Sequence record: PZ445488.1
From: a phage
Reading direction: 5' to 3' (one strand)
Length of the DNA: 64,000 nucleotides
Part shown: piece by piece, positions 1,411 through 61,656 of the stretch
Position numbering within the stretch: position 1 is the first letter of the stretch
How the letters are laid out: each line of letters opens with the position of its first letter
Position numbers and translations under genes: made by a program
The notes under the pieces: generated by a model
The model's input: the letters and a program-made list of their open reading frames with translations, nothing else
Databases searched by the model: none
Told to the model about the DNA's origin: nothing

Positions 1411-1449
1411 TGATAGGTCTATAATATCATGTTTGAAGCAAAAGTAAAC
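1411..1449 (-). promoter_or_regulatory. early promoter with embedded stem-loop (PeSL-like), upstream of motA
   Basis: Plus strand tgataggtctataatatcatgtttgaagcaaaagtaaac; on minus strand reads GTTTAC(-35)-spacer-TATTAT(-10); near-identical copy at 1733-1770. Confidence 0.55.
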
Positions 1450-1732: not shown

Positions 1733-1770
1733 GATAGGTCTATAATATCATGTTTGAAGCACATGTAAAC
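1733..1770 (-). promoter_or_regulatory. early promoter with embedded stem-loop (PeSL-like)
   Basis: gataggtctataatatcatgtttgaagcacatgtaaac; duplicate of the 1411-1449 element. Confidence 0.55.
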
Positions 1771-4004: not shown

Positions 4005-4042
4005 GCTAATTTCCTCAATTGATTAATGTTTTTGTAATCCAT

Positions 4043-4078
4043 GAGAGCATTATACTCTGCTCTCAAGAGTTTGTACAA
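4043..4078 (-). promoter_or_regulatory. early promoter upstream of ndd
   Basis: Minus strand TGTACA(-35)-17 nt-TATAAT(-10) (plus attata 4049-4054); same element repeated at 48952-48986. Confidence 0.5.
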
Positions 4079-4300: not shown

Positions 4301-4339
4301 GATAGGACTACTATACCATAATCCTATCGTGATGTAAAC
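4301..4339 (-). promoter_or_regulatory. early promoter with embedded stem-loop (PeSL-like)
   Basis: gataggactactataccataatcctatcgtgatgtaaac; stem gatagga/tcctatc; GTTTAC on minus strand. Confidence 0.5.
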
Positions 4340-4812: not shown

Positions 4813-4851
4813 GATAGGACTACTATATCATAGTCCTACTTAGTTGTAAAC
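4813..4851 (-). promoter_or_regulatory. early promoter with embedded stem-loop (PeSL-like)
   Basis: gataggactactatatcatagtcctacttagttgtaaac; stem aggacta/tagtcct. Confidence 0.5.
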
Positions 4852-4863
4852 ACTTTTGTGAAA

Positions 4864-5484
4864 TTAAAGATGAAGATACCACCCGTTGTAGTTGCTCTTG
4901 CGGACGATTTTCTTTAGGTCTTCATGGTCTCCCACGAACTTTATAGAATAAGAGAAGACGTCAGGTGAGGTTTCTTTGACATCTAATATAATAATGCAAT
5001 CTGCGACTCGATGGTTCAAGAAGGGCCCTATATTGATTCCATTACCACCCGGATAATCACCACTGTATCCTGTGGTAACCGAAATCCATTTCGAATCCAT
5101 CTGATGGGTCTTTACTTCTACGCGTAGACCACAGTACTTAGGATGAGCTAAAACGTCCCATGCATACGTGTACGGGTCTTCTACGTCTTCATTACCTTTA
5201 TTAACATATCCGTCTAGCCAATTTGCTACTACATACTCTGCAAAGACTGCAACCTTACAACGTCGAACAACGTCTTCTTTTATTTGACCTGGATCTTGTT
5301 TCAACGAGTACCGAGCAGTATCAGCGATCTTAACCTTCATTTCGCTAGTCAAAAACTCATTCGACAGGATAAATGTCGGAAGACTCTTCAGCCTCAACAG
5401 TCCCAAGTTCGTCTTTACCATAGATACCTCTAATGTGTAGTTCGCCAAAATAAATGCGGTCACCTTCTTCAAGATATTCTGCAT
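4864..5484 (-). CDS. hypothetical protein at the denB-syntenic position (start uncertain; 159-206 aa)
   Basis: Track ORF; the 5' end overlaps the upstream ORF in another frame, so an internal Met (5421 or 5340) is the likelier start. Identity with endonuclease IV not established. Confidence 0.4.
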   Translation of the reverse strand: MQNILKKVTAFILANYTLEVSMVKTNLGLLRLKSLPTFILSNEFLTSEMKVKIADTARYSLKQDPGQIKEDVVRRCKVAVFAEYVVANWLDGYVNKGNEDVEDPYTYAWDVLAHPKYCGLRVEVKTHQMDSKWISVTTGYSGDYPGGNGINIGPFLNHRVADCIIILDVKETSPDVFSYSIKFVGDHEDLKKIVRKSNYNGWYLHL

Positions 5485-5644
5485 CTACCGGTGGGATTTC
5501 AATAACAACTTCGTCACATTCTAACCAGCCATAGTGTGCATCACCTGGGTGTTTTACCAATTTAGCGCAATACACTGATTTACATTTATGATGGCCACGA
5601 AGATTAGCGATTTTGGATTCTGATACGTCAAATGGATGAATCAT
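5357..5644 (-). CDS. hypothetical protein (95 aa)
   Basis: Track ORF 5357-5683 trimmed to the Met at 5644 because the first 13 codons are the rIIB terminator hairpin. Confidence 0.4.
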   Translation of the reverse strand: MIHPFDVSESKIANLRGHHKCKSVYCAKLVKHPGDAHYGWLECDEVVIEIPPVDAEYLEEGDRIYFGELHIRGIYGKDELGTVEAEESSDIYPVE

Positions 5645-5686: not shown

Positions 5687-6622
5687 TTATTCTGCAAATA
5701 ATTCAGTAACGTCTGAAATTACTTCATAACGACAAGTACGCATCTTAGCATCACCATAGTCAACTGGGATGGATACAACATCACGTGGATGAACTTTAAC
5801 CTTCACAACTTTATCTGAGCTTGAACCAAAGTGGCGAATATAAGATTTAGCACAAACGTGGAGACCGCGAGAACAGGTTTGAGTATCATCGTCGTTAACT
5901 CGAGTACGAGGCATTGAAACAACTTTACCTGGGGAGTTATCAAATGTACCACTATAGCAGTCTAAATAGTCCTTACGAACTACTTTCCACGCATAGAAAT
6001 GACCATCTTCAGTGATTTCAATATCATTTGCAACCAAGAAGTCGAATAAACGTTGTACAGCTTTTTCGCTTGGGTTTTCTAACAGGTTTTCAAGGAACGG
6101 CAGATAGAATTTAAAGTCTTCGCCTTTTTCCATGGAATCAATAATACGATTAACCAAGCCAGAACGAATCTCTATACCTTGATAAAATAAACTACCACCT
6201 TCAATAACAACATTACCGTCAACAAACTTACTAATAGCTTTCTTGATGTTAATAAGTTCGACAGCTTTACTAAGGTTTCCTGCGACCAGATTAGCTTTAA
6301 TTTCTTCAAAATTTGCATGACTTGATGGGGTCGCATTGTATGCTACGCGTCCTTCAATAATTGAAATAAATTTAGATGACGCGTTCCATACTATTTCAGG
6401 ACGATGTCCGCCGATAATAGGTTCATTATTTTCTTGGACCTGTTCTTCGTCTTCAAATTCAGCTGCTTTCTCTTCAGCTTTAAAGTTCTTAACAATCTTA
6501 CGAAGAGTGTCAGTGGAAATATTGAAGTAATCAGCAATTTCCCGACGGGTCCATTGGCCTGATTTAACCAGACCGTAAGCTTCTAACTGTTCTTCTTGAG
6601 ACAAGCATTTAATATTGTACAT
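5687..6622 (-). CDS. rIIB: rIIB rapid-lysis/membrane integrity protein
   Basis: 311 aa (T4 rIIB 312 aa), immediately downstream of rIIA. Confidence 0.75.
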   Translation of the reverse strand: MYNIKCLSQEEQLEAYGLVKSGQWTRREIADYFNISTDTLRKIVKNFKAEEKAAEFEDEEQVQENNEPIIGGHRPEIVWNASSKFISIIEGRVAYNATPSSHANFEEIKANLVAGNLSKAVELINIKKAISKFVDGNVVIEGGSLFYQGIEIRSGLVNRIIDSMEKGEDFKFYLPFLENLLENPSEKAVQRLFDFLVANDIEITEDGHFYAWKVVRKDYLDCYSGTFDNSPGKVVSMPRTRVNDDDTQTCSRGLHVCAKSYIRHFGSSSDKVVKVKVHPRDVVSIPVDYGDAKMRTCRYEVISDVTELFAE

Positions 6623-10294: not shown

Positions 10295-12129
10295 TAGGAC
10301 ATCCATTCTTTACGAAGTTCTGAATCATCACCCAACAACATTTCAAAGAGTTCTTTCCAATTTTCAGGAAGTTTAACTACGTCGTACACAGGGTTCTGAA
10401 TCATTTCACGATACTCTGACTTTTCAAGGGAGCCCAATCCCTTGATGTATCGAATACTATGCTTAGGCAGCGTATCTTTAACTTCTTCATACTCAGCTAC
10501 AGTATAAAACCATTTTTGAGTTTTGCCAATTTGTGCAATAATTACAGGTGTTTTAACAAAGCGAATACGTCCTTGTTCAAACAATTCAGGCCAATTACTA
10601 AAGAAAGCAAGCAAAGCAGGATAAATACTTCCAAGGCCGTCATGATCGGCATCGGTCATAATTGCAATATTACGATAGTTCGTATTCTCTGCCTTTTCAC
10701 CAAGAATAAGACCTGTGATAGCACAGATATCAAAGAGCTCTTTGTTCTTCATCATATCAGCATATGACATACCCCAGCTATTCATCACCTTACCACGTAA
10801 TGGGAATCCGCCGTGTAGTTCACGGTCACGAACATCAATGAGATAACCAATTGCCGAATCACCTTCTGTTAAGAACAATGTCGTATCTGCATCTTTACCA
10901 CATTGGTTAGCTTTAATATGCTTATGAACCTTAGCTTTAGTTGCCTTTTTAGCTGCTTTAGTTTCTGCGGCCTTTTCTGCTGCCAATTTACGAGCTAATG
11001 CTGCTTCAATTATAGGCATTAAAACTGCTTCAGAATTCAAAATATTTTTTGCCAATTTTTTGGTATCTAATTTAATATGCGTCCGAATTTCGCCATAAGG
11101 ACTTGTTAAACGCTCTTTGGTTTGGGAATCAAAACGAAGGTTCTTCATTCCACGAACGAACATTAAGAGAGTGAGACATTCCTTGATGCGCGCTTTAGTC
11201 ACGTCGATTTTATATTTGCGTTTAATAGCCGGAATTAATTCTTCGCAAATGTCGTCCATCACACATTCAATGTGATGACCGCCATTTTTGGTATGGATGT
11301 TATTAACATAAGTTAAATGACGGAAGCCATCTGGTGACCGACCAATGGCAATAGAGCATCCATCTTGTTCTTGAATGACGGTCTCTTCATCAAATTGTTT
11401 AGCAAACTTCTTAAAGTTACCTTTAATCCTTTTGCCATTAAATTTAAATTCAATACCAGGATAAACGACTGCCAATGTTTGGAGCCGGTCTATAGTAATA
11501 TCTTGGTATATTTTTTCAAATTGATTCATTTCAAAATGAGAGAAATCAGGAATAAACTCGACCTTAGTCCCGTTGTTTTTAGACGGCTTAGATTTCCAAG
11601 AAATATTATCAGCATTATTAGAACAATTAACTGTCAATTCGTTTTTACCATCTGAAGTAGTGCCAACAAAAGAGACAGAAAAAATATTTGTTAATGAAGA
11701 ACCGACACCGTTTTGTCCACCCGTAACACGTTCTTTGTCGTCACCAAAGTTGCCACCAGCTTTTGTACGTGTCCACGCCGCAACTGGTCCTGGAATTTCT
11801 TCTCCTTCAGGAGTAATAACTGTTTCTTGAGGAATACCTCGTCCATTATCTTCAACAGTCACTTTATTAGAATTTAAATCAATACTAACAGAAATTTTAT
11901 TAGCATATTTGAAATTGGTTCGAATAGCTTCATCTACCGAGTTGTCAATAATTTCATCAATTAATTTGAGAACACCTGCAACATATTTAACCTTTTTAAA
12001 TTCACCGAATAGGAAACGTTCTTGTTCTTCATTGGCAACACTTCCAATATACATGCCAGGACGCTTCAAACAATGCTCTTTATCAGATAGCATTTCAATT
12101 TTATTATCAATCATTAGATTTTCTCTCAA
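10294..12129 (-). CDS. 39: DNA topoisomerase II large subunit, GyrB-like ATPase + Toprim (single fused 39/60-type gene)
   Basis: 611 aa continuous ORF with GyrB-like ATPase N-terminus; in T4 this function is split into genes 39 and 60. Confidence 0.85.
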   Translation of the reverse strand: MRENLMIDNKIEMLSDKEHCLKRPGMYIGSVANEEQERFLFGEFKKVKYVAGVLKLIDEIIDNSVDEAIRTNFKYANKISVSIDLNSNKVTVEDNGRGIPQETVITPEGEEIPGPVAAWTRTKAGGNFGDDKERVTGGQNGVGSSLTNIFSVSFVGTTSDGKNELTVNCSNNADNISWKSKPSKNNGTKVEFIPDFSHFEMNQFEKIYQDITIDRLQTLAVVYPGIEFKFNGKRIKGNFKKFAKQFDEETVIQEQDGCSIAIGRSPDGFRHLTYVNNIHTKNGGHHIECVMDDICEELIPAIKRKYKIDVTKARIKECLTLLMFVRGMKNLRFDSQTKERLTSPYGEIRTHIKLDTKKLAKNILNSEAVLMPIIEAALARKLAAEKAAETKAAKKATKAKVHKHIKANQCGKDADTTLFLTEGDSAIGYLIDVRDRELHGGFPLRGKVMNSWGMSYADMMKNKELFDICAITGLILGEKAENTNYRNIAIMTDADHDGLGSIYPALLAFFSNWPELFEQGRIRFVKTPVIIAQIGKTQKWFYTVAEYEEVKDTLPKHSIRYIKGLGSLEKSEYREMIQNPVYDVVKLPENWKELFEMLLGDDSELRKEWMS

Positions 12130-12790
12130 ATTGCATGACTATATTTTTGTATGAACCTTCCGGAAATCCACGTTTAACGCTTTCTTTAGCAAATTTACCG
12201 ACCTTTGGTTTATCCAATTCTAACCATAATTTATATAAAGAAGATTCATATTCCCATACAGGACTTTTACGATTTTTAAGCCCACACTTTATAAGCGCTT
12301 CCTTTGTATGTTTCTTATTATAAAATGGATTGTTTTTGCCACTCATTGCTTTAGAATGTTCAGGGCGCTTAATTCCATACATCGGATTAAGATCGCCTTT
12401 CTTGATAATTGATTGTAGTTCAATAGTTTCTTCAGAGTGATTGTGTCCATAAAATGGATTTAACTCTTTTGAAACATCCATACCAAAGCACCCATCGACT
12501 GTGGCATAAGACATGTTGAAAAATTTTTCAGATTTAACCACATTATGCAATTTCTGGTAATACAACTCACAAAACGTCGCTTCTTCACGTGTATCAAATT
12601 CGCCAATAATACATGAATCAAATAAATGAGGATTATCTTTTATCTCTTTATCATAAATTTGTTTATATTTTTTCGACTTTACCGTACCATGATAGTAACT
12701 GTTTGTATGTTTATCAAGATAAGTAGACCCTATATAAAACGGTGGCAACTTATCGCCTGTGTATATTGTTAAGTATGTTATGTATTTCAT
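12107..12790 (-). CDS. GIY-YIG homing endonuclease (Seg-like) with NUMOD3 repeats
   Basis: 227 aa; YITYLTIYTGDKLPPFYIGST...YHG GIY-YIG core plus three NPxYG..HSEET-type repeats; 3' end overlaps the first 23 nt of gene 39. Confidence 0.75.
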   Translation of the reverse strand: MKYITYLTIYTGDKLPPFYIGSTYLDKHTNSYYHGTVKSKKYKQIYDKEIKDNPHLFDSCIIGEFDTREEATFCELYYQKLHNVVKSEKFFNMSYATVDGCFGMDVSKELNPFYGHNHSEETIELQSIIKKGDLNPMYGIKRPEHSKAMSGKNNPFYNKKHTKEALIKCGLKNRKSPVWEYESSLYKLWLELDKPKVGKFAKESVKRGFPEGSYKNIVMQFERKSND

Positions 12791-12824
12791 AAAGGTATTC
12801 TATCATCCGAAATCTAAAGCAAAA
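12791..12824 (-). promoter_or_regulatory. putative MotA-dependent middle promoter
   Basis: Minus strand TGCTTTA (MotA box) - 12 nt - TAGAAT; the same GCTTTA...CGGATGATAGAAT block recurs upstream of gene 47. Confidence 0.4.
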
Positions 12825-12838
12825 AGGGCCGAAGCCCT
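12811..12838 (-). terminator. stem-loop terminator
   Basis: agggc-cgaa-gccct hairpin then UUUUUGCUUU on the minus-strand RNA. Confidence 0.45.
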
Positions 12839-13260
12839 TATTTAAATTTAATTTTCTGAAGTGCATCAATTGCAGCCAGACGCCCTTGTTCACTTTTAAC
12901 TGTAATGACCACATCACCTGATACGATCACCGAACCATCAACAAATTCTATAGAGCCTTTTTTGAAATCAACTGACGTAGGTTCCGGAACTTCTTCAAAG
13001 AATTTAAATTCTGCACCATAAAGCAGAATATCACCTTGCATACTATGAATAGTTCGGCCATAATCGCCTACGGCTTCTACAGCAATAACCGAAACGCCGT
13101 AACCAATCATCTCTTCCACAATAAAATCTTTGGACAATAAAGTAGTATGCAGATTAGTATTAAGACGTTTACCAGTCGTATTAAGAATTCTCAAGAAATT
13201 ATCTTCTTGTCCTTTGATAATACGATATTTCTTACCAACTTCAAAACCTTTAAAAGCCAT
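12838..13260 (-). CDS. hypothetical protein (140 aa)
   Basis: Track ORF, operon strand. Confidence 0.45.
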   Translation of the reverse strand: MAFKGFEVGKKYRIIKGQEDNFLRILNTTGKRLNTNLHTTLLSKDFIVEEMIGYGVSVIAVEAVGDYGRTIHSMQGDILLYGAEFKFFEEVPEPTSVDFKKGSIEFVDGSVIVSGDVVITVKSEQGRLAAIDALQKIKFK

Positions 13261-13262
13261 AA

Positions 13263-13442
13263 TTAACCCTTTTTAAGTAAGTCGTAAAAACCACCGTTCA
13301 CATGTTTAGGAGCAGAAACCCGACGAGTAGACAGACGATGACATTCAGGGCAAACATCGTTTTCTCGTTCAGAAATTCTTTTAATTTTTTCATATTCATG
13401 GCCGCAATCTTCAGATTGGCATTTATAGTCGTATAACGGCAT
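13263..13442 (-). CDS. small zinc-ribbon protein (FmdB-like CxxC...CxxC), 59 aa
   Basis: Hand-translated MPLYDYKCQSEDCGHEYE...CPEC; below the 60-aa track cut-off. Confidence 0.4.
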   Translation of the reverse strand: MPLYDYKCQSEDCGHEYEKIKRISERENDVCPECHRLSTRRVSAPKHVNGGFYDLLKKG

Positions 13443-13447
13443 TATTA

Positions 13448-13876
13448 TTATTCCTTAAAATGTGCTTTCAACATTTGATACAAAGACCATGCCTGGTCGT
13501 TATTTTTGATAGTAATCGTCATCACCGGAAATTCAGACAATTCGTCAAGTTCACCAGAATCTTGCTCTTCGGACGCTTGATACGGATTTCCAACTTCATC
13601 AAAAAACTCTGCTTCATTCGTGGAGAGCCAGATAAAGTTTTCATCAAGGATATCACCACCTGTCGCGTATCCAACCATGCCAGTAGATGTCACAATTTTA
13701 GTAGGACGACCAAGATGGTCAACATCTAATACTTTAAATGGTTCCATGCCAAGACGTCGTGCATAAATCCCATTATCGGTGTGGTCCTTAATAAACTCTT
13801 CTTGGGCACGTTTATCTTTAAATTGGTACCACGAGTTAACGCGGAATTTATTAGCCATTAGTAAGTTTCCTTCCAA
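13448..13876 (-). CDS. hypothetical protein (142 aa)
   Basis: Track ORF, operon strand. Confidence 0.45.
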
Positions 13877-14130
13877 TAAGTTGTACCGTTTTCAGTGATT
13901 TCACGGAAGATACCGTAGATAGGCATTTCATCACCGAGTTTTTCGTAAACGTAAACCACTTCAGTGTAGCATAAAAATCCGGTCCAGTTTTTCTGTACAA
14001 CAACTAAATCAGGATTAAACAGAACATCTTCAAACTCATCGATGTTTGAATCAGTAGTTACGTTTTTAATGATTTGACGTTTCATAATATTCTCCTCTTG
14101 TTTTGATAGGTCTATAGTATCATAGACCAT
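13858..14130 (-). CDS. hypothetical protein (90 aa)
   Basis: Track ORF with own PeSL-like promoter and GAGGAG RBS. Confidence 0.45.
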
Positions 14131-14144
14131 AGTTGTTGTACATC
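14105..14144 (-). promoter_or_regulatory. early promoter with embedded stem-loop (PeSL-like)
   Basis: gataggtctatagtatcatagaccatagttgttgtacatc; stem ggtctat/atagacc. Confidence 0.5.
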
Positions 14145-14667
14145 ATTTTAGCAAAATAAAATCAACTTGTTCTGCCAATGAACGTCTAAACATTAATTGA
14201 CAACTTCCGAGGATGAAATCAGGTGCTTCATAGACCGCGATGTAGTATCCTTTAGCTTTCAAGAGTTCAACATCCACCTGGTCATCAAACCATGCATAAA
14301 CCGCGTCAACGCTTTCAAATCCAAAATAGAACCCTTGAGCCCAATCTTCACTCAATTCAAATGTGTACTCAATTCTATGGTATCTTAAGATATTTTGTTC
14401 AAGAAGTTTGTCTTCATTTACTGTAGGACGATTAGGGACATTATAGTTGTCGCCGTGATGGTAGAAGTTACCTGAGAGTATTCCATGCTTATCAAGGAAC
14501 TCCCATGTTTCTTCAGAGTTGTCAGTGCCAGACCAACCGTAAGGTGAGCGAGGTTCTTTATTCCAAGAGGTTTCCCAAATTCTGACGGCTTTACCGTCTT
14601 CGATAACAATTCCTGGTAATGATTCACGTTGAGTACAAAAACTACGTTCTACGCGGTAAACTAACAT
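14143..14667 (-). CDS. hypothetical protein (174 aa)
   Basis: Track ORF with own PeSL-like promoter. Confidence 0.45.
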   Translation of the reverse strand: MLVYRVERSFCTQRESLPGIVIEDGKAVRIWETSWNKEPRSPYGWSGTDNSEETWEFLDKHGILSGNFYHHGDNYNVPNRPTVNEDKLLEQNILRYHRIEYTFELSEDWAQGFYFGFESVDAVYAWFDDQVDVELLKAKGYYIAVYEAPDFILGSCQLMFRRSLAEQVDFILLK

Positions 14668-14672
14668 ATTAT

Positions 14673-14722
14673 TCTCCTCTGGTTGATATGGTTATAATAT
14701 CAAAACCAGAGGAGAAGTAAAC
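14673..14722 (-). promoter_or_regulatory. early promoter with embedded stem-loop (PeSL-like)
   Basis: 12-bp stem tctcctctggtt/aaccagaggaga around a loop containing tataat; GTTTAC at 14717-14722 on minus strand; the distal stem arm doubles as the GAGGAG RBS. Confidence 0.55.
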
Positions 14723-14726
14723 AACT

Positions 14727-15146
14727 TTATGCGAAAGCAGCTGGGCTATATTTTTTAATTTGGAATTCAGGAACTACCATGAACTGACCAGCGAAAACGA
14801 TGTTATAAAGCTTAACACCATCTTCTACCCAACGGTCGCTAATAAATCCGGCGATTTGCTTAGTTTTCCATGGCGTTCCATCAGTTGCCGCAGCAATAGT
14901 GAATTCATGGTCTTTTTCAACAGAAACTGATCTGCATAGTCCCCATTTGAACGCTTTTTCTTCTGGCTCAATGAACTGGCTTGAGACGTAGCCAATATTA
15001 CCATTAGCATCACGAACTTTAACTTGGTTACGACCAAAAACCGGATCACTCACAGAAAGAACTTCAACCAACTTCCCGGCAACTTTAGAGCGAGAAGCAA
15101 CAGATACATATACGTAATCACCTGTAGAGAGATTTACAATATTCAT
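14727..15146 (-). CDS. paralog family protein A (139 aa)
   Basis: C-terminal GFISDRWVEDGVKLYNIVF shared with the next two ORFs. Confidence 0.5.
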   Translation of the reverse strand: MNIVNLSTGDYVYVSVASRSKVAGKLVEVLSVSDPVFGRNQVKVRDANGNIGYVSSQFIEPEEKAFKWGLCRSVSVEKDHEFTIAAATDGTPWKTKQIAGFISDRWVEDGVKLYNIVFAGQFMVVPEFQIKKYSPAAFA

Positions 15147-15155
15147 AATAATTCC

Positions 15156-15641
15156 TTAAGCTTTACGAGGAGACACATAGCGAGTGATTTCAGATTCTTT
15201 AACAACTCTGAAGTCACCTAAGAATATGATATTGTATAACTTTTCACCATCTTCAACCCATTGGTCACTAATGAAGCCGCACATAGTATCAGTTTTGCTT
15301 GGATAACCGTATTCATCGATGAAGTCAAATTCTTTATCAGTCTGGAATTCAACGCCTTTGCAAAGGGCCCATTTGAACTGTACATTATGCTCTGTGGATT
15401 CAACTTTTTCTCTTGAAGCAAAAGCACTACTCACAGGCGTTTCCAAGAACTTTGCACGAACATAAGCAAATTTGGTTTCCTGTGTCCCAAAACTAGGAAT
15501 AATACGAACTTTTACCTCAGAATCTTCATCTTTAACGCCTTCTTTAAGTTGAATACTTACAACTTCGACCAATTTTCCTGCGGCTTTAGAACGAGATTTG
15601 TTAGATACGCGAACGATTTCACCAATAATACCAAGATTCAT
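15156..15641 (-). CDS. paralog family protein B (about 162 aa from internal Met)
   Basis: Track ORF 15156-15704 trimmed to MNLGIIGEIV...; shares SRSKAAGKLVEV and GFISDQWVEDGEKLYNIIF with neighbours. Confidence 0.5.
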   Translation of the reverse strand: MNLGIIGEIVRVSNKSRSKAAGKLVEVVSIQLKEGVKDEDSEVKVRIIPSFGTQETKFAYVRAKFLETPVSSAFASREKVESTEHNVQFKWALCKGVEFQTDKEFDFIDEYGYPSKTDTMCGFISDQWVEDGEKLYNIIFLGDFRVVKESEITRYVSPRKA

Positions 15642-15703
15642 AATTTCTCTCTCTTTGTTTAAATTGAATTCATTATACTCCATCCATCCTTGGATATACA
15701 ACA

Positions 15704-16198
15704 TTAATTAAGGATATTAACCACAGCACTACGTGGAACTACACTAAAATCACCTGCATGAACAACGTTCAGAAGTTCAACACCGTCTTCAATCCACTGG
15801 TCAGTTACCCATCCATTTACTGGACCTGCGAACGGGCGTCGAATTGAAACATATTTACACAGCAAATCAGTAGGCTCAATAGGCTTAATCAGAGTACCGT
15901 ACATACAAGCGATATCCATATCAATACAGATGTCTTTAACGGGTTCTACTTCTTCAATCAACAGTTCAAAGTCTGTGCTTGGAAGGGCGGTAGTAGAAAT
16001 TGTACCATATGAATTTTTAATTTCTAAGAATAACCAAGGGCCTTCAGCTTGTTTGATGAAGTTAACAATAGTGAAACTATTGCCTTGAGTGGCACCTAAA
16101 ATTTCACAAAACTTTTCGTAAGCTCGCACTGAAGCACTGTACCAGTTGATTTGTTTTTCGTCTTTCAGGATGTAAGTAGCCGTAGTATTGATATTCAT
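15704..16198 (-). CDS. paralog family protein C (164 aa)
   Basis: C-terminal GWVTDQWIEDGVELLNVV motif. Confidence 0.45.
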   Translation of the reverse strand: MNINTTATYILKDEKQINWYSASVRAYEKFCEILGATQGNSFTIVNFIKQAEGPWLFLEIKNSYGTISTTALPSTDFELLIEEVEPVKDICIDMDIACMYGTLIKPIEPTDLLCKYVSIRRPFAGPVNGWVTDQWIEDGVELLNVVHAGDFSVVPRSAVVNILN

Positions 16199-16228
16199 AA
16201 TGTTTTTCCTGTTTGGTTAAGATAGAAA

Positions 16229-16259
16229 GATTATACTCCAACCATCCTTGGTTGTAAAC
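16229..16259 (-). promoter_or_regulatory. early promoter, hairpin-in-spacer type
   Basis: attatactccaaccatccttggttgtaaac = minus GTTTAC-18 nt-TATAAT; spacer holds the caacca/tggttg hairpin; repeated at 57174 and 58193. Confidence 0.55.
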
Positions 16260-16264
16260 TGGTT

Positions 16265-16942
16265 TTATCGCTGTTTTACACTTATCGGGTCAGGATTCTC
16301 AGGGACATCTTCAAGGCCAAGCGCATAACGCTGAGCATATTTTAACATCAAAATATCTTTAGCACAATCGTGAATACTATCATGGGCAACGAATCCTTTT
16401 AGCGTACCCATCGGTAATGGACACATACTTAATCCTCGTGTCAACGAGTAAGCTTCGATTGCCGTACGAATATCACGTTGAGCCCAGAATTTAACAGGTT
16501 CTAATTTATCGGTATCAATATCTGGTTCAAGAACACCTTCATCACGATAGAGGTCACGAATCAAATCGACCAAGATCGGGAAGTCAAAGCTCATACCACG
16601 GCACCACATCTGTGATTTCCATTGGTCAACTTTATTAGCTCGACAATAATCTAAAAAGATTTTAATGCCTTCAAGCGTAGTGACATCGTCTTCAGACGGA
16701 GCCAGGTTTTTACGTGCTTCTGCTGATTGTTCTTTCCACCATTTCATAGTGGATTTAGCGAAAACTCGCTTCCCTTTTTGAGAAGCTAAATTAAATTTAA
16801 TTCGCTTACCTCGTTGAACAAGTTCTTCAAATGTTTCAACAACTTCAGGGTCGGAATTATATGCAATAACCGCAAGGTCAATAACAGCCGCTTTTGATGT
16901 ATTGCCGAATGTTTCAAAATCTATAATAACATCAGTGCTCAT
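16265..16942 (-). CDS. dexA: exonuclease A (DEDD 3'-5' exonuclease)
   Basis: 225 aa (T4 DexA 227 aa); N-terminal DFETFG exonuclease motif; adjacent to dda. Confidence 0.7.
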   Translation of the reverse strand: MSTDVIIDFETFGNTSKAAVIDLAVIAYNSDPEVVETFEELVQRGKRIKFNLASQKGKRVFAKSTMKWWKEQSAEARKNLAPSEDDVTTLEGIKIFLDYCRANKVDQWKSQMWCRGMSFDFPILVDLIRDLYRDEGVLEPDIDTDKLEPVKFWAQRDIRTAIEAYSLTRGLSMCPLPMGTLKGFVAHDSIHDCAKDILMLKYAQRYALGLEDVPENPDPISVKQR

Positions 16943-16951
16943 AATTTTCTC

Positions 16952-18265
16952 TCAAATAAAATGGACGTCAAAACGACCGCGAGTTGTGCCGACATACAAT
17001 AACTGTTTAGCTAATTCTGAATCAGCATAATGGATACACGGTGTATAAACAAAGGCCGTGTCAACAGACATACCCTGGGCCTTATGGAAGGTTGATACTG
17101 GTAGTGCCTTCACCTTAGTGAACATACGTTTAGCATCCCAGAATTCACTCCATGGAGCTTTACCACCTTTATTCCAGAATTTGTATGTTTCTGCTGTCTT
17201 AGCCAAAAACAAATTGAATTTATAAAGCTCTTCTTCAGAAGAAATAACCTTTATATCCTCGCGGACGTATTCTTCATCATCCACATATGTTTCTACTGTA
17301 AGATTCCAATATCGTATCATATACTCGCCTGAAACACCACGTGCTTTAACGAATGTAGACGTTTCTACAGCATCTCGAATACGAACGAATTGCCCGTTAT
17401 TGAAAAGCATTTCGGTCATATTTTTGCCATCTAGCTTATACGTCTTGGTAAACGGCTCTTGTAGAACAATGACCTCGTCTTTAATAAATGGTTTTTCTGT
17501 TTCGAGAAGTTTTCGGCGAATAATTGAATTCAACTTATCTACTGACTTATTTGTGAATGCCATCATTCGATTTTCGAAAAGGTCTTCAGGAGTTTTAACG
17601 ACGTTAAAATAGTTCATCATATACGATTTAAGGTCTGTATATCCATGAACACCGTGCCCATCAACTACTTTATCGTAAATCCATTTGCCATTACGAATAT
17701 CAGTCGCAACATCAATAATTGGTGCATTGCTACGTTTAACTTCTGTAAGGTTGCATTGCACGAAGTCTTTGTGAGTGAAGAAAGGACTTAGATACGCAGT
17801 TGATTCGCCTGGGTCTACCGGTCGAATTTGACATCGGTCGCCGATTCCAATTACTGTGCACCATTTAGGGATACTAGCTAACATTATTTTAAACAGAGAA
17901 CGGTCACACATTGACGCTTCATCAAATAACAGTACACGACACAAGGCTAAGTCGGGAACCTTTTTCTGTTCAAATAATACGTTTTCTTCGTATGTAGTTG
18001 GGTTGATTTTAAGAATGCTATGAATAGTCGATGCTTCTTGACCTGCAAGTTTGCTTAGAACCTTTTTAGCAGCGTGTGTAGGGGCTGCTAAAATAATACC
18101 TGATTCTCCAGAAGAAATAAGGGCTTCAACGATGAATCTAGTAAGGGTTGTTTTACCTGTACCAGCAGGCCCATTAATAGTTACGTGATGTTTCTTTTCT
18201 TTAATAGCTTTCATAACAACGTTGAAGGCGTTTTTCTGGCCTTCGGTCAAATCGTCAAATGTCAT
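16952..18265 (-). CDS. dda: Dda SF1 DNA helicase
   Basis: 437 aa (T4 Dda 439 aa); Walker A GPAGTGKTT; synteny. Confidence 0.8.
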   Translation of the reverse strand: MTFDDLTEGQKNAFNVVMKAIKEKKHHVTINGPAGTGKTTLTRFIVEALISSGESGIILAAPTHAAKKVLSKLAGQEASTIHSILKINPTTYEENVLFEQKKVPDLALCRVLLFDEASMCDRSLFKIMLASIPKWCTVIGIGDRCQIRPVDPGESTAYLSPFFTHKDFVQCNLTEVKRSNAPIIDVATDIRNGKWIYDKVVDGHGVHGYTDLKSYMMNYFNVVKTPEDLFENRMMAFTNKSVDKLNSIIRRKLLETEKPFIKDEVIVLQEPFTKTYKLDGKNMTEMLFNNGQFVRIRDAVETSTFVKARGVSGEYMIRYWNLTVETYVDDEEYVREDIKVISSEEELYKFNLFLAKTAETYKFWNKGGKAPWSEFWDAKRMFTKVKALPVSTFHKAQGMSVDTAFVYTPCIHYADSELAKQLLYVGTTRGRFDVHFI

Positions 18266-20086: not shown

Positions 20087-20143
20087 TTAGGTTTCTCCTG
20101 TGGTTGATAAAGGTATAGTATCATCATCGGAAGAGTTTGTACA

Positions 20144-20725
20144 CTAAAAATTCAACATTTTCAAATGAATGATTTTGTATAACCGAGATAAAGGGTCATA
20201 TTCTAAGTCTTCAATTTCTACAATCTCAAATCTAGAGATACCTGAGACCATATATTCTTGTTCAGATTCAATCATATCTAGGACGTCAACACGTTTTTCT
20301 TCCATAACATGCTTAGGGTTCTTTCCGGCGAGTACAATGTTAATCATGTTTTGGTAGTAATCAAAAATGAATGGAGCATTCCTGAGACTAAGAATAGTGT
20401 ACGTCTGATATTCCCAACTCCCAGAGAACTGTCTGGCCGTACCAAAGTCTGTTGTAAACGATGTTACTCGTCCAGGAGACCAATGGCATCCAACAGAAAG
20501 AAGGGAAAGACGTTCTACTTCTTCTGGAGTTACACCACGATAGAGTTCTACTGGTACTGTAGAAGTCATATGCTTACGAACAAGATGGTCTAATTCATAG
20601 TGGAAATCTGGGTCTTCCTTATAATCAGTGCAAGCCCAGAGAATGTTTTGTTCTTGTTTAGTGAATTTATCATCAATTAGTGCTGCGAGATATTCGCGTT
20701 CTTGAAGTTCAGATTGACATGTCAT
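20144..20725 (-). CDS. ADP-ribosyltransferase, ModA/ModB-like paralog
   Basis: 193 aa; LYRG ... SFTT ... ESEQEYMV motifs; tandem to the previous gene. Confidence 0.45.
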   Translation of the reverse strand: MTCQSELQEREYLAALIDDKFTKQEQNILWACTDYKEDPDFHYELDHLVRKHMTSTVPVELYRGVTPEEVERLSLLSVGCHWSPGRVTSFTTDFGTARQFSGSWEYQTYTILSLRNAPFIFDYYQNMINIVLAGKNPKHVMEEKRVDVLDMIESEQEYMVSGISRFEIVEIEDLEYDPLSRLYKIIHLKMLNF

Positions 20726-20743: not shown

Positions 20744-20781
20744 GATAAGCCTATCATAACACGAGAGGAGGGAATGTAAAC
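20744..20781 (-). promoter_or_regulatory. early promoter
   Basis: Minus strand GTTTAC-17 nt-TATGAT upstream of the 193-aa gene. Confidence 0.45.
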
Positions 20782-22293: not shown

Positions 22294-22530
22294 TTAACCA
22301 CTTACTGGTGTAGGGGTAAACATTGCAGCGTTCTTAGTTTTCCAAGTTGCTGCATCAGAAACGACATCAGAATAAGCTGCCTTTTCTGATGGAAAGATTT
22401 GGTAATGAGAATCTGCAATCCGATGTTCGTTTGAATAAATCTCAAACGGTACAGAAACTTCCATACCTTTAACTTCTTTACCTTCACCCGCAGGATGCGT
22501 AAAGGTTTTGATGTTTACATAACCACCCAT
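22294..22530 (-). CDS. soc: small outer capsid protein Soc
   Basis: 78 aa; GYVNIKTF and HYQIFPSEKAAYS match recalled T4 Soc; TATAAATA late promoter 33 nt upstream. Confidence 0.7.
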   Translation of the reverse strand: MGGYVNIKTFTHPAGEGKEVKGMEVSVPFEIYSNEHRIADSHYQIFPSEKAAYSDVVSDAATWKTKNAAMFTPTPVSG

Positions 22531-22562
22531 AATTAACTCCTTTGTTGTTTAATTACAGGTGT

Positions 22563-22570
22563 ATTTATAA
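22563..22570 (-). promoter_or_regulatory. T4-type late promoter TATAAATA for soc
   Basis: Plus tatttata = minus TATAAATA, about 30 nt upstream of the soc ATG. Confidence 0.65.
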
Positions 22571-22575
22571 CTTAA

Positions 22576-23094
22576 TTAGTAACCATTATCCTGACGTTCA
22601 AAGTTGTGTTGGTTTTTCAAGTAGTAAAGTTTAAAGATTTCTTCAGCCGAAAGACCTAGACCTTGGAACATATTTAGAACGAAATGCAGAATATCAATCA
22701 TTTCAAATTTAATTTCAAGCTGGTCTTCAGGAGACAGTTCATCAATACGACGATTTCGATATTCAGCATGTTGTGCCTTCCACGGCTTCCATACACTGCT
22801 GGCGGCTTTTTCACCATTGCTCATACCACCAAGTGAAGTCAGCAGTTCACGGAATTCATCATCAATATAATCTTTCTGATTACGCAGCCAATCAACAACA
22901 TCACCAGCAGTGGCCAATTCATCAGGATGTTTGTTATGTTCAGGCTTGTCATTTGCCAGACGAACCTGTAAAGATTTTTGCATATCAAGCATTACCTGCA
23001 GTGGGTCTTTATCTTCGTGAATCAGAGCATTAAAATAAGCTTCTTCTGCTTTATCAACACCAGAAATAAGTTGTGAACATTCATTAAAGTGCGC
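22576..23094 (-). CDS. 56: dCTP pyrophosphatase (dCTPase/dUTPase)
   Basis: 172 aa from the second ATG (first ATG lies in the AAAGGAAA RBS); MAHFNEC...DPLQVMLDMQ...ELLTSLG...SPEDQLEIKFE...EEIFKLYYLKN matches recalled T4 gp56. Confidence 0.75.
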   Translation of the reverse strand, partial: AHFNECSQLISGVDKAEEAYFNALIHEDKDPLQVMLDMQKSLQVRLANDKPEHNKHPDELATAGDVVDWLRNQKDYIDDEFRELLTSLGGMSNGEKAASSVWKPWKAQHAEYRNRRIDELSPEDQLEIKFEMIDILHFVLNMFQGLGLSAEEIFKLYYLKNQHNFERQDNGY

Positions 23095-26093: not shown

Positions 26094-26132
26094 GATAGGA
26101 CTACTATACTATAGTCCATCTATAATGTAAAC
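26094..26132 (-). promoter_or_regulatory. early promoter with embedded stem-loop (PeSL-like)
   Basis: gataggactactatactatagtccatctataatgtaaac. Confidence 0.5.
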
Positions 26133-27409: not shown

Positions 27410-27448
27410 GTAAGTACATCATATCATGCCTAGAGGAAGATGTAAACC
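27410..27448 (-). promoter_or_regulatory. early promoter
   Basis: Minus strand GTTTAC-18 nt-TATGAT. Confidence 0.45.
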
Positions 27449-48025: not shown

Positions 48026-48046
48026 AAGTACCTCTTGGCTCAATTC

Positions 48047-48090
48047 ATAGGTCTATTATATCATAATATTTAGAGACCTATCTTAAAGCA
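48047..48090 (-). promoter_or_regulatory. stem-loop element with MotA-box-like motif upstream of gene 55
   Basis: ataggtct...agacctat hairpin (PeSL type-1 core) and minus-strand TGCTTTA. Confidence 0.35.
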
Positions 48091-48920: not shown

Positions 48921-48951
48921 ATTATTTTCCTCTGTTATTTTATTATCCAAC

Positions 48952-48986
48952 GAGAGCATTATACTCTGCTCTCAAGAGTTTGTGCG
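48952..48986 (-). promoter_or_regulatory. early promoter (copy of the ndd promoter)
   Basis: gagagcattatactctgctctcaagagtttgtgcg, near-identical to 4043-4078. Confidence 0.45.
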
Positions 48987-49226
48987 TTATTTCGTGATAA
49001 GATAATGTAAATAGTTTGCTTGACGAACACTGATATCAACACCCATATCAAAGATACCTTTATAGAACGGGTATTTGTTTTCAGTAGAATCTAGACTAAA
49101 AGCCTTTCCGCCACAACTAACGGTAATAGCATCAGTTAAAGTGTCATATGCAAACTTAATAGTTGAGCCGTTCACTACGACTTCAAGACGTTTTTTCGAT
49201 GTAATAATGTCTAATTCTTGTTCCAT
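48987..49226 (-). CDS. hypothetical protein (79 aa)
   Basis: Track ORF, operon strand. Confidence 0.4.
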   Translation of the reverse strand: MEQELDIITSKKRLEVVVNGSTIKFAYDTLTDAITVSCGGKAFSLDSTENKYPFYKGIFDMGVDISVRQANYLHYLITK

Positions 49227-49286
49227 GATATTTTCCTCATTTTAAGACGATAGGAAGATAACACTTCTTCCTACCATCGTAAACTA

Positions 49287-50175: not shown

Positions 50176-50474
50176 GGCTTAATTTCCTTCGCAATTGAAC
50201 AGAAGATACCACGGTCACAAAGCATTTCACCAATTTCTGGATATTTGATTGAACGGTACCAAACATCCAGGCTTGAAACTCTGGTTATCTGTACTGCATT
50301 ACCGTTGACAGAATAATACTGGTCAACCTTAATTTCTTTATCTTCAATTGTCATTTTATTTTCCTCTATAGTAGATGGTTTAATCTTAACACATCTATTG
50401 AGGATGTAAACTGTTTTATGAAAATATTTTTGATTTGAGAGGGGCACAAGGAGATAGTGAAGTGAGGATTCCAA
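50172..50474 (-). CDS. hypothetical protein (100 aa)
   Basis: Track ORF, operon strand. Confidence 0.4.
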   Translation of the reverse strand: MESSLHYLLVPLSNQKYFHKTVYILNRCVKIKPSTIEENKMTIEDKEIKVDQYYSVNGNAVQITRVSSLDVWYRSIKYPEIGEMLCDRGIFCSIAKEIKP

Positions 50475-54252: not shown

Positions 54253-54450
54253 TTAGTAAATGTTATAAAAGTTACGATGAGAACGTTTAGCTTTGCGAAG
54301 CTGACGTTTAGTAGGACGAACTGTAAATGGTTGTCCAGAGAAAAAATTCGGATCGGTTTTAATAAGCAAATACCAATCACGCTTGCCATTTTTTAATAAA
54401 CGGTACAATAATTTAACTTGCATAATAATCTCTTCCCATTTCCATATCAA
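54253..54450 (-). CDS. hypothetical protein (65 aa)
   Basis: Track ORF, operon strand. Confidence 0.35.
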   Translation of the reverse strand: MIWKWEEIIMQVKLLYRLLKNGKRDWYLLIKTDPNFFSGQPFTVRPTKRQLRKAKRSHRNFYNIY

Positions 54451-54926: not shown

Positions 54927-55223
54927 TTATTGTTCTACCCAGGCACAGGAAACTTCGAAATCAGGACCACCGTATTCCCAGTGATATTCACCAACAGGAA
55001 TCCAGTCACCGTGCTCGTTTTCTTCATAGTCCTCAGCCTCAAGGCCAACGAATCGCCATTGGACACCGATGATTCGATTACCCATTAATATATGAAATTC
55101 ACCCCATGGATTATCGATAGCATATTGGATATCGTTCTTAGCACGAGAACACATTTCTTGATATAACAAAGCTTCTAATTCGCCCTGATCATAAGGGCCC
55201 GGGAAAGTTAAATCAATACTCAT
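54927..55223 (-). CDS. hypothetical protein (98 aa)
   Basis: Track ORF, operon strand. Confidence 0.4.
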   Translation of the reverse strand: MSIDLTFPGPYDQGELEALLYQEMCSRAKNDIQYAIDNPWGEFHILMGNRIIGVQWRFVGLEAEDYEENEHGDWIPVGEYHWEYGGPDFEVSCAWVEQ

Positions 55224-57144: not shown

Positions 57145-57173
57145 AATATTTTCCTCTCGTTAAGATAGATTCA

Positions 57174-57203
57174 TTATACTCCAACCATCCTTGGTTGTAA
57201 ACC
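57174..57203 (-). promoter_or_regulatory. early promoter, hairpin-in-spacer type
   Basis: attatactccaaccatccttggttgtaaac, exact copy of 16229-16259. Confidence 0.55.
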
Positions 57204-58166: not shown

Positions 58167-58192
58167 TTTATATTCCTCATGTTGAAAAATTT

Positions 58193-58223
58193 ATTATACT
58201 CCAACCATCCTTGGTTGTACATC
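58193..58223 (-). promoter_or_regulatory. early promoter, hairpin-in-spacer type (variant -35)
   Basis: attatactccaaccatccttggttgtacatc. Confidence 0.5.
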
Positions 58224-59825: not shown

Positions 59826-59863
59826 GATAGGTCTATAATAACATAACCATAGACCTTGTAAAC
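59826..59863 (-). promoter_or_regulatory. early promoter with embedded stem-loop (PeSL-like)
   Basis: gataggtctataataacataaccatagaccttgtaaac. Confidence 0.55.
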
Positions 59864-59865
59864 AA

Positions 59866-60153
59866 CTAAAAGAAACTTTTTTCGGTATTTTTTCCACTGA
59901 ACCAAACAGACTTCGGGATTTTTTGTAATTTTTCAGATTTAAGTTTCTCTTCCTGTTCTTTCTTATATACACTCTTGTCGTACTGGAGCATCTCTATGGC
60001 ATTCTTTTGCAAATGATCTAAGGTAATTAAGGCTTTAGTTTTTCCTTTCAAGGAAGAGTCCTGGCGAACTTCCTCGCTATATTGCATCGTAGAACTAACC
60101 ATACGATGTGCATAGAGTTCGACTGCGGCTTTAATTTTTTGCATAAAATCCAT
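59866..60153 (-). CDS. hypothetical protein (95 aa)
   Basis: Track ORF, operon strand. Confidence 0.4.
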   Translation of the reverse strand: MDFMQKIKAAVELYAHRMVSSTMQYSEEVRQDSSLKGKTKALITLDHLQKNAIEMLQYDKSVYKKEQEEKLKSEKLQKIPKSVWFSGKNTEKSFF

Positions 60154-60290
60154 AACATATCCTCTTTGATTTGTACATCATTATTTTAAATATTTCTATG
60201 CCCTCAGTAGGTTCCTGGTGTCCTTCTTTGAGGTAAGCCATATGATTATTCATCTTTATGGCTTTTGTTACCTCAGGACTTCCTGTAAGC

Positions 60291-61300: not shown

Positions 61301-61338
61301 GATAGGTCTATAGTATCATATCCTAAAAGCATGTACAC
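61301..61338 (-). promoter_or_regulatory. early promoter with embedded stem-loop (PeSL-like)
   Basis: gataggtctatagtatcatatcctaaaagcatgtacac. Confidence 0.45.
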
Positions 61339-61389: not shown

Positions 61390-61656
61390 TTACTTATCAC
61401 ACTTAGCAACATAATTAGGCATATCACAGAATACAGAGCGAGTAACTACTCGTCCCTTTGACCATGCTTCAGTTGCTTGTCCGGCCGTGCTATTAATATA
61501 GCTTGATTTAATGTTCTCAATACCCTGAGAATGTGATGCATTTACCGAACCGTTAGAAGGCGCAGGAGCCGGTGGTAACCAGTCTCCTGCGCCCGTGGTA
61601 GCACCAACAGAGAATGCCATCATTACTGCGAATAAACCAATTACTAATTTTTTCAT
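61390..61656 (-). CDS. secreted/periplasmic small protein (88 aa)
   Basis: Signal peptide MKKLVIGLFAVMMAFSVGA; TATAAATA late promoter 29 nt upstream. Confidence 0.5.
   Translation of the reverse strand: MKKLVIGLFAVMMAFSVGATTGAGDWLPPAPAPSNGSVNASHSQGIENIKSSYINSTAGQATEAWSKGRVVTRSVFCDMPNYVAKCDK

Follow-up and report, generated by a model that had tools for sequence, protein, structure and literature searches.

Across the 64,000 nt of phage DNA in sequence record PZ445488.1 (hereafter the window), an element resembling an early promoter is repeated on the minus strand, and in the interval 14105-14722 two copies of it bracket the orthologue of motB.2. A first-pass annotation, made from the letters alone, had placed the -10 box of these elements inside stem-loops and likened them to the promoter-early stem-loop (PeSL) cassettes of T4-type phages. 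What are these elements, what would a hairpin that spans a promoter do to a transcript arriving from upstream, and do the elements travel as units? Our best explanation, which we consider probable from the sequence evidence, is that they are early promoters, that about a third of them encode hairpins able to form only in read-through RNA, and that their cores have served as crossover points. Within it, the predicted sequestration of the motB.2 Shine-Dalgarno (SD) sequence is both the best-supported and the least documented part of the earlier interpretation; the promoter/stem-loop cassette as a type is already known, and nothing here is categorically new.

Early promoters in the window

All eleven positions at which the element had been marked (11/11) do bear it, on the minus strand, the marked coordinates being its low-coordinate, +1-side ends. 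It reads there GTTTAC (or GTGTAC/ATGTAC), 17-18 nt, TAnnnT and AG(A/T)CCTATC(A/T) around +1, with A-rich sequence upstream of the -35 box at every site and, some 20-33 nt beyond the AG(A/T)CCTATC box, an SD and ATG. The strict pattern GTTTAC-N15-19-TANNNTAGNCCTATC occurs 6 times against 0.00 expected (100 shuffles), and the 3' box TANNNTAGNCCTATC with at most one mismatch 11 times against 0.85. A looser scan for GTTTAC-like and -10 sequences yielded 40 minus-strand and 14 plus-strand candidates; an SD, an ATG and an open reading frame (ORF) follow 22 of the former and none of the latter. These 22 sites, together with the cef element (-35 ATGTAC) that was added by hand, form the set of 23 promoters analyzed below, each referred to by the coordinate of its -35 end. 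Searching with core sequences adds three promoters with weaker -35 boxes (4078, 48987, 58222), for a total of at least 26 early promoters in the window, among which those first marked are the subset with the AG(A/T)CCTATC box. A call at 13723, inside goF, is probably false.

By their sequence, the elements are sigma-70-dependent early promoters of the T4 type, with activity predicted; besides the T-even -35 they show an extended -10 and, around +1, a conserved discriminator rich in C (..CCTATC). Each sits in an intergenic gap of roughly 60 nt that leads directly into an early gene's SD and ATG; 18 of the 23 -35 boxes are intergenic by crude gene calls, the remaining ones overlapping the last codons of the upstream gene, and the 5' untranslated regions (5'UTRs) mostly measure 20-25 nt, reaching 33 nt at motA, ORF71 and nrdC.10. 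A Mot-box reading of TGCTTCA in the spacer of the motA promoter was ruled out, the motif lying about 5 nt too near the -10.

Judged by identity, the window comes from an RB69-like Mosigvirus, a T4-type phage. Positions 13000-16000 share 97-98% identity with numerous RB69-like phages, among them Shigella phage Shf125875 and OLB35, and match a 2.9-kb fragment of Escherichia phage CEV1 at 100%, Mosigvirus being the genus of both Shf125875 and RB69. Nearly all genes lie on the minus strand, identity to RB69 is about 96%, and gene order is collinear with it: the arn/motA region comes first, followed by rIIA, the motB/cef cluster, the replication genes and, at the far end, nrdC.11/mobD.1. Nolan et al. 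2006 (PMC1524935) give an RB69 early-promoter model, with a GTTTAC -35, A-rich sequence at -40 to -44 and a preference for C at -3 to -1, and a list of 58 sites. The window elements share loci, motif and C preference with these predicted promoters: the two of the interval 14105-14722 are orthologues of Pe:6863 (cef) and Pe:7443 (motB.2), with motifs identical in RB69, and others map to Pe:162713, 165283, 165795, 19020, 53683, 55018/55296, 12829 and 13466, among further sites. The identification as GTTTAC-spacer-TATAAT-like early promoters is thus supported by coincidence with a published list of predicted promoters. The genes driven are cef, motB.2, motB.1, motA, modA, modB, sp, imm, imm.1, ndd, ndd.1, nrdC.3/.8/.10, 55.2/55.6 and several small ORFs. 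The downstream genes had been described as small and non-core, which holds only loosely; they are early and mostly dispensable, yet go beyond small ORFans to include motA, modA, modB, genes of the imm region and nrdC.x.

Hairpins across promoters and the motB.2 SD

The distal stem arm of the element at 14673 had been said to double as the ribosome-binding site, and this is so: the motB.2 SD GAGGAG (14674-14679), 6 nt before the ATG (14665-14667), lies inside the 3' arm, and the -10 sits in the hairpin loop and inner helix. The hairpin folds at -23.9 kcal/mol (z -6.18; 0 of 200 shuffles as good). RNA from the predicted +1 starts downstream of the 5' arm and is unstructured (0 kcal/mol). The predicted probability of an unpaired SD, P(SD unpaired), rises from 0.00 in read-through RNA to 0.51 in promoter-proximal RNA.

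This design is kept with differing stem sequences in Mosigvirus (TTCTCCTCTGGTT/AACCAGAGGAGAA), Dhakavirus (JS10, VR5 and IMG/VR contigs; TTCTCCTCATG/CATGAGGAGAA) and Tequatrovirus (T4, wV7, Ozark; TCCTCGGTTAG/CTACTGAGGA in the T4 group), among which the MotB.2 protein is only about 33-36% identical. In two further genera, represented by Kosakonia phage 305 and Pectobacterium PM2, the hairpin is rebuilt: the 5' arm has moved to just after the -10, yet it keeps its pairing with the SD/AUG and its place ahead of the expected start. Pairs were counted over nine distinct sequences, two of them paralogous promoters built in the same way, and 4 of 14 proved to be changed on both sides and none on one side only; the covariation score was reached by 0 of 500 shuffles, and slid registers collapse. 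T4-type rows were left out of this count since the first motB.2 alignment put them out of register; taken separately, the T4 hairpin contains three G·U pairs and no A·C. The gene lies between a motB-like ORF and cef in the window, RB69 and Mosigviruses, and directly after dexA in four other genera. A protein-seeded search for the locus in IMG/VR returned near-identical relatives only, and an exact-pattern scan of the same resource 104 stretches, mostly unrelated, of which the useful ones were Mosigvirus, Dhakavirus and T4-type copies and one paralogous promoter. With compensatory changes across genera added to the folding, sequestration of the motB.2 SD in read-through RNA, as the annotation had predicted it, is strongly supported at the level of sequence.

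Published data on the endoribonuclease RegB bear on the same SD. RegB is inhibited by RNA structure, and the T4 motB.2 SD (GGAU) is one of only two GGAU sites that it cuts in vivo (PMC1702504); this cutting fits the presence of open promoter-proximal transcripts alongside closed read-through ones. RegB targets are GGAG/U with an A-rich tail in early SDs (PMC1702504), and the window's motB.2 and cef SDs likewise read GGAG followed by AAUAAUA and AAUAUUA. In the window phage, the hairpin may protect read-through RNA from RegB.

Hairpins were also screened across the promoter set, taking 38 nt per promoter, from the spacer to +8, with same-strand 38-mers as background. Seven of the 23 cores fold at or below -9 kcal/mol, compared with 4.9% of background 38-mers (binomial P = 8e-5), an enrichment that holds although promoter regions are more AT-rich than background. 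Against dinucleotide shuffles of segments of about 60 nt, individual z values are -6.2 (14722), -5.1 (49284), -4.9 (4339) and -2.5 (4851), then -1.9 (26132 and 59863), -1.3 (14143) and -0.6 (27447). Altogether, about 9-12 of the at least 26 promoters, roughly a third, have hairpins, with none at 1449, 1770, 20144, 26443, 26873 and others. The placement of the -10 in a stem-loop is correct for the elements ending at 4301, 4813, 14105, 26094, 59826 and 14673, takes another form at 20744, and fails at 1411, 1733, 61301 and 20105, which have the box and no meaningful hairpin. Since our hairpin set was chosen by folding, the published RB69 list (29 sites with sequence) served as an unbiased test. 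In register u(k+4):d(k), five of these 29 promoters form 7 or more of 8 pairs, whereas eight other registers give 0-1; with upstream and downstream halves permuted among promoters, the count is significant (P = 0.0002) and the mean is not (P = 0.055), indicating that a subset of promoters, and not all, is selected for pairing. The accessible part of the RB69 promoter paper mentions neither hairpins nor SD pairing ("stem-loop" occurs 0 times), and an Rfam scan of the whole window gave 0 matches at gathering score.

Two main designs can be distinguished. Class A hairpins have their 5' arm in the spacer and a loop made up of the extended -10 and most of the -10 itself; their 3' arm begins where the -10 ends and extends to about +2. 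In class B, to which motB.2 belongs, the -35 is immediately followed by an anti-SD box (TTCTCCTC, TCTTCCTCT, ATCCTC) that pairs with the gene's SD. As the 5' arm is upstream of the predicted start in both classes, either hairpin would be possible only in RNA from upstream. A third placement consists of small hairpins wholly within the spacer (CAACCA/TGGTTG) in three copies; besides motB.1, the core AACCAAGGATGGTTGGAGTATAAT that contains them occurs on the minus strand at 57166-57202 (nrdC.3) and 58186-58222 (the next nrdC gene). A hairpin outside the set, ATAGGTCT/AGACCTAT, surrounds a TATAAT at 48046-48090 (minus strand), upstream of the gene 55 orthologue; it has a AGACCTAT box and no GTTTAC, a Mot-box-like GTGCTTTA lies upstream, and it may be a middle-promoter (PmSL-like) counterpart.

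Class B probably extends beyond motB.2 to modB, 55.6 and the ORF040c orthologue, for which predicted P(SD unpaired) is, respectively, 0.05, 0.17 and 0.02 in read-through RNA and 0.28, 0.73 and 0.71 in promoter-proximal RNA. At modB, the partner of the -10 region is CTATCATG at the start codon, a pairing (TATGATAG/CTATCATG) that T4 modB shares; T4 nrdC.8 has an anti-SD hairpin instead of the type found in the window. Anti-SD tetramers are enriched in spacers of both the window (4/23, P = 0.012) and RB69 (5/29, P = 0.005). The same accessibility screen recovers, as a positive control, the known late-promoter hairpin of soc as a high-difference case. The soc leader (22530-22580, minus strand) combines the late promoter TATAAATA with AATTAA/TTAATT pairing that covers the start region, with predicted accessibilities of 0.29 in long and 0.71 in short RNA, which is the known T4 soc arrangement.

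Class A comprises cef, ndd.1, sp, ORF270c, ORF075c, nrdC.8, ndd and 55.2. At cef, the hairpin is present in three genera with unrelated stems: GGTCTAT/ATAGACC in the window and RB69, (G/A)ATAGGGTA/TACCCTATC in the same register in Dhakaviruses, and 13 bp of ATCAGTAGTTGAT/ATCAACTACTGAT in T4. Inside helices, G·U occurs 11 times and A·C once, a ratio that points to pairing in sense-strand RNA rather than to a duplex palindrome or an operator for a protein. The 55.2 stem differs between RB69 (CGAGAGA/TCTCTCG) and the window by a double change from A-T to C-G. The ndd and 55.2 promoters, 45 kb apart, have an identical 29-nt core, AAACTCTTGAGAGCAGAGTATAATGCTCTC, suggesting conversion between distant promoters or a compensatory double change. 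Upstream of T4 cef, an SD (GGAGAATAAAATG) and an unannotated 11-codon ORF (MENSLKVLILF) follow a hairpin-embedded promoter (T4 6520-6600, minus strand), with no counterpart at the Mosigvirus cef promoter.

The mechanism we propose, in which promoter activity, start sites, translational block and attenuation are inferred from the observed motifs, hairpin enrichment, covariation and chimeric junctions, would run as follows. RNA begun at a gene's own promoter would lack the 5' arm, and RNA from an upstream promoter would contain the hairpin. In class B, whose 3' arm is the SD or start codon, read-through RNA would be translationally silent and probably shielded from RegB, and the gene would be expressed only from its own early promoter; it would be the T4 e/soc/49/I-TevI switch with an early promoter in place of the late one. 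Class A hairpins leave the SD largely open and are followed by no U tract on the gene strand; they may insulate against or attenuate incoming transcription, or form a 3' exonuclease barrier after cleavage by RegB or RNase E at the next SD, each of which we put forward as a doubtful suggestion at most. The near-identical cores, finally, would be crossover points at which promoter and gene units are deleted, inserted or paired anew, as in PeSL-type shuffling. As a general statement, that many T-even early promoters are transcript-origin switches, their DNA encoding a 5' arm that silences (class B) or marks or insulates (class A) read-through RNA, the proposal is tentative.

Alternatively, the hairpins could be terminators or attenuators that halt polymerase coming from the upstream cassette, with any effect on translation incidental. 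One RB49 PeSL stem-loop lowered lacZ expression as strongly as rrnB T1, the window hairpins stand just after upstream stop codons, and classic terminator hairpins are found just upstream of promoters 61338 (CCCCTTAGGGGG and a T-rich stretch) and 27447 (GGAGACTTCGGTCTCC and TTT). We nevertheless think this unlikely for the hairpins within promoters, as A-rich sequence and not U tracts follows those of classes A and B, the motB.2 stem covaries specifically with the SD, and transcription of T4 early units is known to continue into the genes that follow. A scan of 12000-17000 called no canonical terminator at 14109-14128 or 14672-14716 on the minus strand; on the plus strand, 14109-14128 passes weakly.

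Proposed cassette exchange and rival explanations

Modular shuffling, also part of the earlier interpretation, was addressed by comparison with RB69 (BLAST), which gives nine indel or replacement events, four of them involving promoters. Relative to RB69, the window holds an extra unit at 1458-1777, a 71-aa ORF with its promoter, between gene 52 and motA. The single RB69 promoter at the motA locus equals the 1770 copy on its 5' side and the 1449 copy on its 3' side, which places the crossover inside a 32-nt shared core. The 71-aa ORF is present in about half of Mosigviruses and at the same locus in Dhakaviruses. Dhakavirus JS98 shares the window's layout, in which a small ORF with a promoter on either side stands between gene 52 and motA; the two promoter copies of JS98, 41 nt each, match one another exactly and are different from both window copies, which indicates conversion between copies, or concerted evolution. 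At nrdC.10 (61338), the 5' half of RB69 Pe:55296 is joined to the 3' half of Pe:55018 in the shared -10/discriminator block ATGnTAnTATAGACCTATC, and RB69 ORF102c is missing. At 27447, RB69 Pe:20971 is joined at the SD to ORF040c, with RB69 ORF041c and Pe:20537 missing. Gene 61.4 of RB69 is also absent, its junction lying 20-27 nt upstream of promoter 26873. Shuffling thus stands on two chimeras of RB69 promoters with crossovers in the core and a third junction at the SD. Such chimeric junctions, which the PeSL shuffling model predicts, are the real evidence for it; an association of indels with cassettes beyond their intergenic position is unsupported with nine events.

Convergence on one strong promoter consensus, with immobile cassettes and ordinary intergenic deletions, would account for some of this. 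The conserved blocks (-35, TGn, -10, CCTATC) are consensus features noted for RB69, the indel enrichment vanishes against an intergenic null, and the 27447 junction uses SD microhomology only. Identity, however, is not confined to the consensus but takes in spacer and 5'UTR positions outside it, with near-identical cores of 20-32 nt forming families of 2-4; two window promoters are clean 5'/3' chimeras of two RB69 promoters; in JS98 and the window, copies within a genome are closer than orthologues; and motB.2 changed locus together with its promoter and hairpin. We therefore regard convergence as improbable. That the repeats act as duplex DNA, as an operator for a dimeric protein that shuts off early promoters or as a cruciform or nuclease hot spot for recombination, is less probable still: the class A dyad is centered at -11/-12 in a fixed register, the shut-off of early promoters is still unexplained and the window crossovers lie in the -10/discriminator block, but the stems differ fully between promoters with pairing kept, arguing against sequence-specific protein recognition, the excess of G·U would leave the complementary strand mismatched, and geometry also explains the register, spacer and discriminator being the only free positions in a 60-nt gap.

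Several points weigh against the combined reading of early promoters, read-through-only hairpins and core crossovers. Start sites are assumed, +1 being placed 7 nt after the -10; the T4 RefSeq and GenBank entries carry no annotated promoters, and a literature and data search for start-site or 3'-end datasets of T4 or RB69 found none. A hairpin is missing from two thirds of the promoters, and the hairpins at 14143 and 27447, taken singly, do not outperform shuffled sequence. Ten class A promoters (window, Dhakavirus, T4) align gapless in one register with 10 of 13 pairs changing on both sides, a covariation statistic that is inflated, as the alignment consists of fold-selected promoters, paralogues included. 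The missing U tract leaves the terminator role of PeSLs unsupported by sequence for class A. SD accessibility differs between promoter genes and other genes by 0.245 against 0.173, which is not significant (P = 0.06); SD masking is therefore unsupported as a property of all promoter-bearing genes and can be claimed gene by gene, not class-wide. Finally, four of nine indels at cassettes are not in excess, given that cassettes make up about 21% of crude intergenic DNA (P ~0.1).

Known systems and further features

The likeness to PeSL cassettes (Arbiol et al. 2010, PMC2839356; Comeau et al. 2014, PMC4122927) proposed at the outset is upheld, with hairpins that are enriched and covary. Both have a strong sigma-70-type early promoter with AT-rich sequence upstream, an SD and ATG at the 3' end and, in the window at part of the promoters, a stem-loop in or next to the promoter; both are intergenic and repeated beside variable early ORFs, with indel junctions between close relatives falling in the element. 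In RB49 and phi1, stem-loops overlapping the -10 are among the commonest PeSL subclasses and placements vary, as in the window. Differences are that the window stems are AT-rich and short, whereas those of RB49 are polyG/polyC, that T4/PST stem-loops lie just upstream of the promoter while most in the window overlap the -10 or pair with the SD, and that only about a third of window promoters have one.

At the level of translation, motB.2 resembles the hairpin-masked translation initiation regions (TIRs) with an internal late promoter of T4 e, soc, 49, I-TevI/II/III and segB and of Aeh1 mobE (PMC3014915, PMC2988022), in which the SD/AUG is sequestered in long transcripts and RNA from the internal promoter lacks the 5' arm and is translatable. 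The documented cases use a late promoter (TATAAATA) that delays expression, whereas the internal promoter of motB.2 is early (GTTTAC/TATTAT); motB.2 would thus work like this family without being a strict member. The early internal promoter is predicted to confine expression to the early burst and to make the gene independent of transcription from upstream. An early-promoter version of the e/soc/49 hairpin switch was not found in the literature searched. Lambdoid morons are likewise single accessory genes with their own promoter (and terminator), but they have, according to the PeSL authors, no conserved flanking sequence mediating movement, in contrast to the window, whose promoter cores are crossover sites.

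The basic picture of T4-type gene expression is unchanged by these findings. They add the RB69 group to the phage lineages with promoter/stem-loop cassettes and provide clean sequence examples of promoter-core crossovers, and the motB.2 anti-SD hairpin, compensatory across at least three genera, offers a testable case of translation depending on the promoter of origin. If the switch reading is true, a unit would be expressed only from its own promoter wherever it landed, and early cassettes could be shuffled without disturbing expression. If general, such hairpins would help to explain the dense, terminator-less early-promoter arrays of T-even genomes and could serve as a compact insulating part in phage engineering.

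The features of the interval and the principal promoters of the window are collected in Table 1. The -35-like box of the cef promoter overlaps the motB.2 stop codon, and the ORF downstream (13858-14085) has a Pfam T4_Cef match (4.8e-34).

Table 1. Promoters, hairpins and associated genes in the window (start sites and promoter activity predicted)
Feature	Position	Strand	Description
motB.2 class B hairpin	14672-14716	-	5' arm 14697-14716, with anti-SD TTCTCCTCTGG directly after -35; 3' arm 14672-14689
motB.2 early promoter	14687-14722	-	-35 GTTTAC 14717-14722; 17-nt spacer; -10 TATTAT 14694-14699; predicted +1 A14687
motB.2 orthologue, 174 aa	14143-14667	-	bracketed by both promoters of the interval 14105-14722
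cef early promoter	14107-14143	-	-35-like ATGTAC 14138-14143; 18-nt spacer; -10 TACTAT 14114-14119; predicted +1 A14107
cef class A hairpin	14109-14128	-	GGTCTAT(G)/(T)ATAGACC; spans -10 and discriminator; -9.5 kcal/mol, z -1.3
motA early promoter	1414-1449	-	AGACCTATC box, hairpin-free; downstream copy of duplicated core
Early promoter of 71-aa ORF (1487-1702)	1735-1770	-	upstream copy of duplicated core
ndd promoter	4042-4078	-	TTGTAC -35; hairpin GAGAGC/GCTCTC around TATAAT; RB69 Pe:165022; absent from the first-pass list
ndd.1 early promoter	4303-4339	-	class A hairpin GATAGGATTAT/ATAGTCCTATC, z -4.9; RB69 Pe:165283
RB69 ORF270c orthologue early promoter	4815-4851	-	class A hairpin TAGGACTAT/ATAGTCCTA; RB69 Pe:165795
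motB.1 early promoter	16223-16259	-	core AACCAAGGATGGTTGGAGTATAAT, one of three copies; spacer hairpin CAACCA/TGGTTG
modA early promoter	20108-20144	-	GTGTAC -35; without convincing hairpin
modB early promoter	20746-20781	-	-10 region TGTTATGATAG pairs with start-codon region CTATCATGACA; CCCTCCTC box after -35
sp (spackle) early promoter	26096-26132	-	class A hairpin GGACTAT/ATAGTCC; RB69 Pe:19020
ORF040c orthologue early promoter	27411-27447	-	anti-SD TCTTCCTCT; chimeric relative to RB69; hairpin z -0.6
55.2 promoter	48951-48987	-	core identical to ndd promoter core 4042-4078
ORF075c orthologue early promoter	49248-49284	-	13-bp hairpin GATGGTAGGAAGA/TCTTCCTATCGTC; -20.2 kcal/mol, z -5.1
55.6 early promoter	50376-50411	-	anti-SD ATCCTC and TAGATG/CATCTA pairing
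nrdC.8 early promoter	59828-59863	-	hairpin GGTCTATGG/ATTATAGACC, register unlike other class A hairpins
nrdC.10 early promoter	61303-61338	-	terminator-like hairpin CCCCTTAGGGGG precedes; chimera of two RB69 promoters

Some further differences from RB69 lie outside the promoters. Three more indel or replacement junctions away from promoters map to 54264-54318, 54927-55208 and 60120-60290, and include the loss of the pin region and an insertion of about 280 bp near nrdC. At 61390-61656 (minus strand), an 88-aa ORF without a Pfam match, whose N-terminus (MKKLVIGLFAVMMAFSVGA) resembles a signal peptide, stands where RB69 has the unrelated ORF102c region. Just downstream of topoisomerase gene 39 and before the ORF005c orthologue, a 227-aa ORF (12107-12790, minus strand) that is not in RB69 contains three NUMOD3 motifs (Pfam PF07460, E 4.8e-11); it lies within a segment (11967-12789) that stands in place of RB69 5333-5498 and has the appearance of a homing-endonuclease-type insertion. 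A GC-rich hairpin at 12824-12839 (AAGGGCTTCGGCCCTT) has T tracts on either strand and resembles a bidirectional intrinsic terminator.

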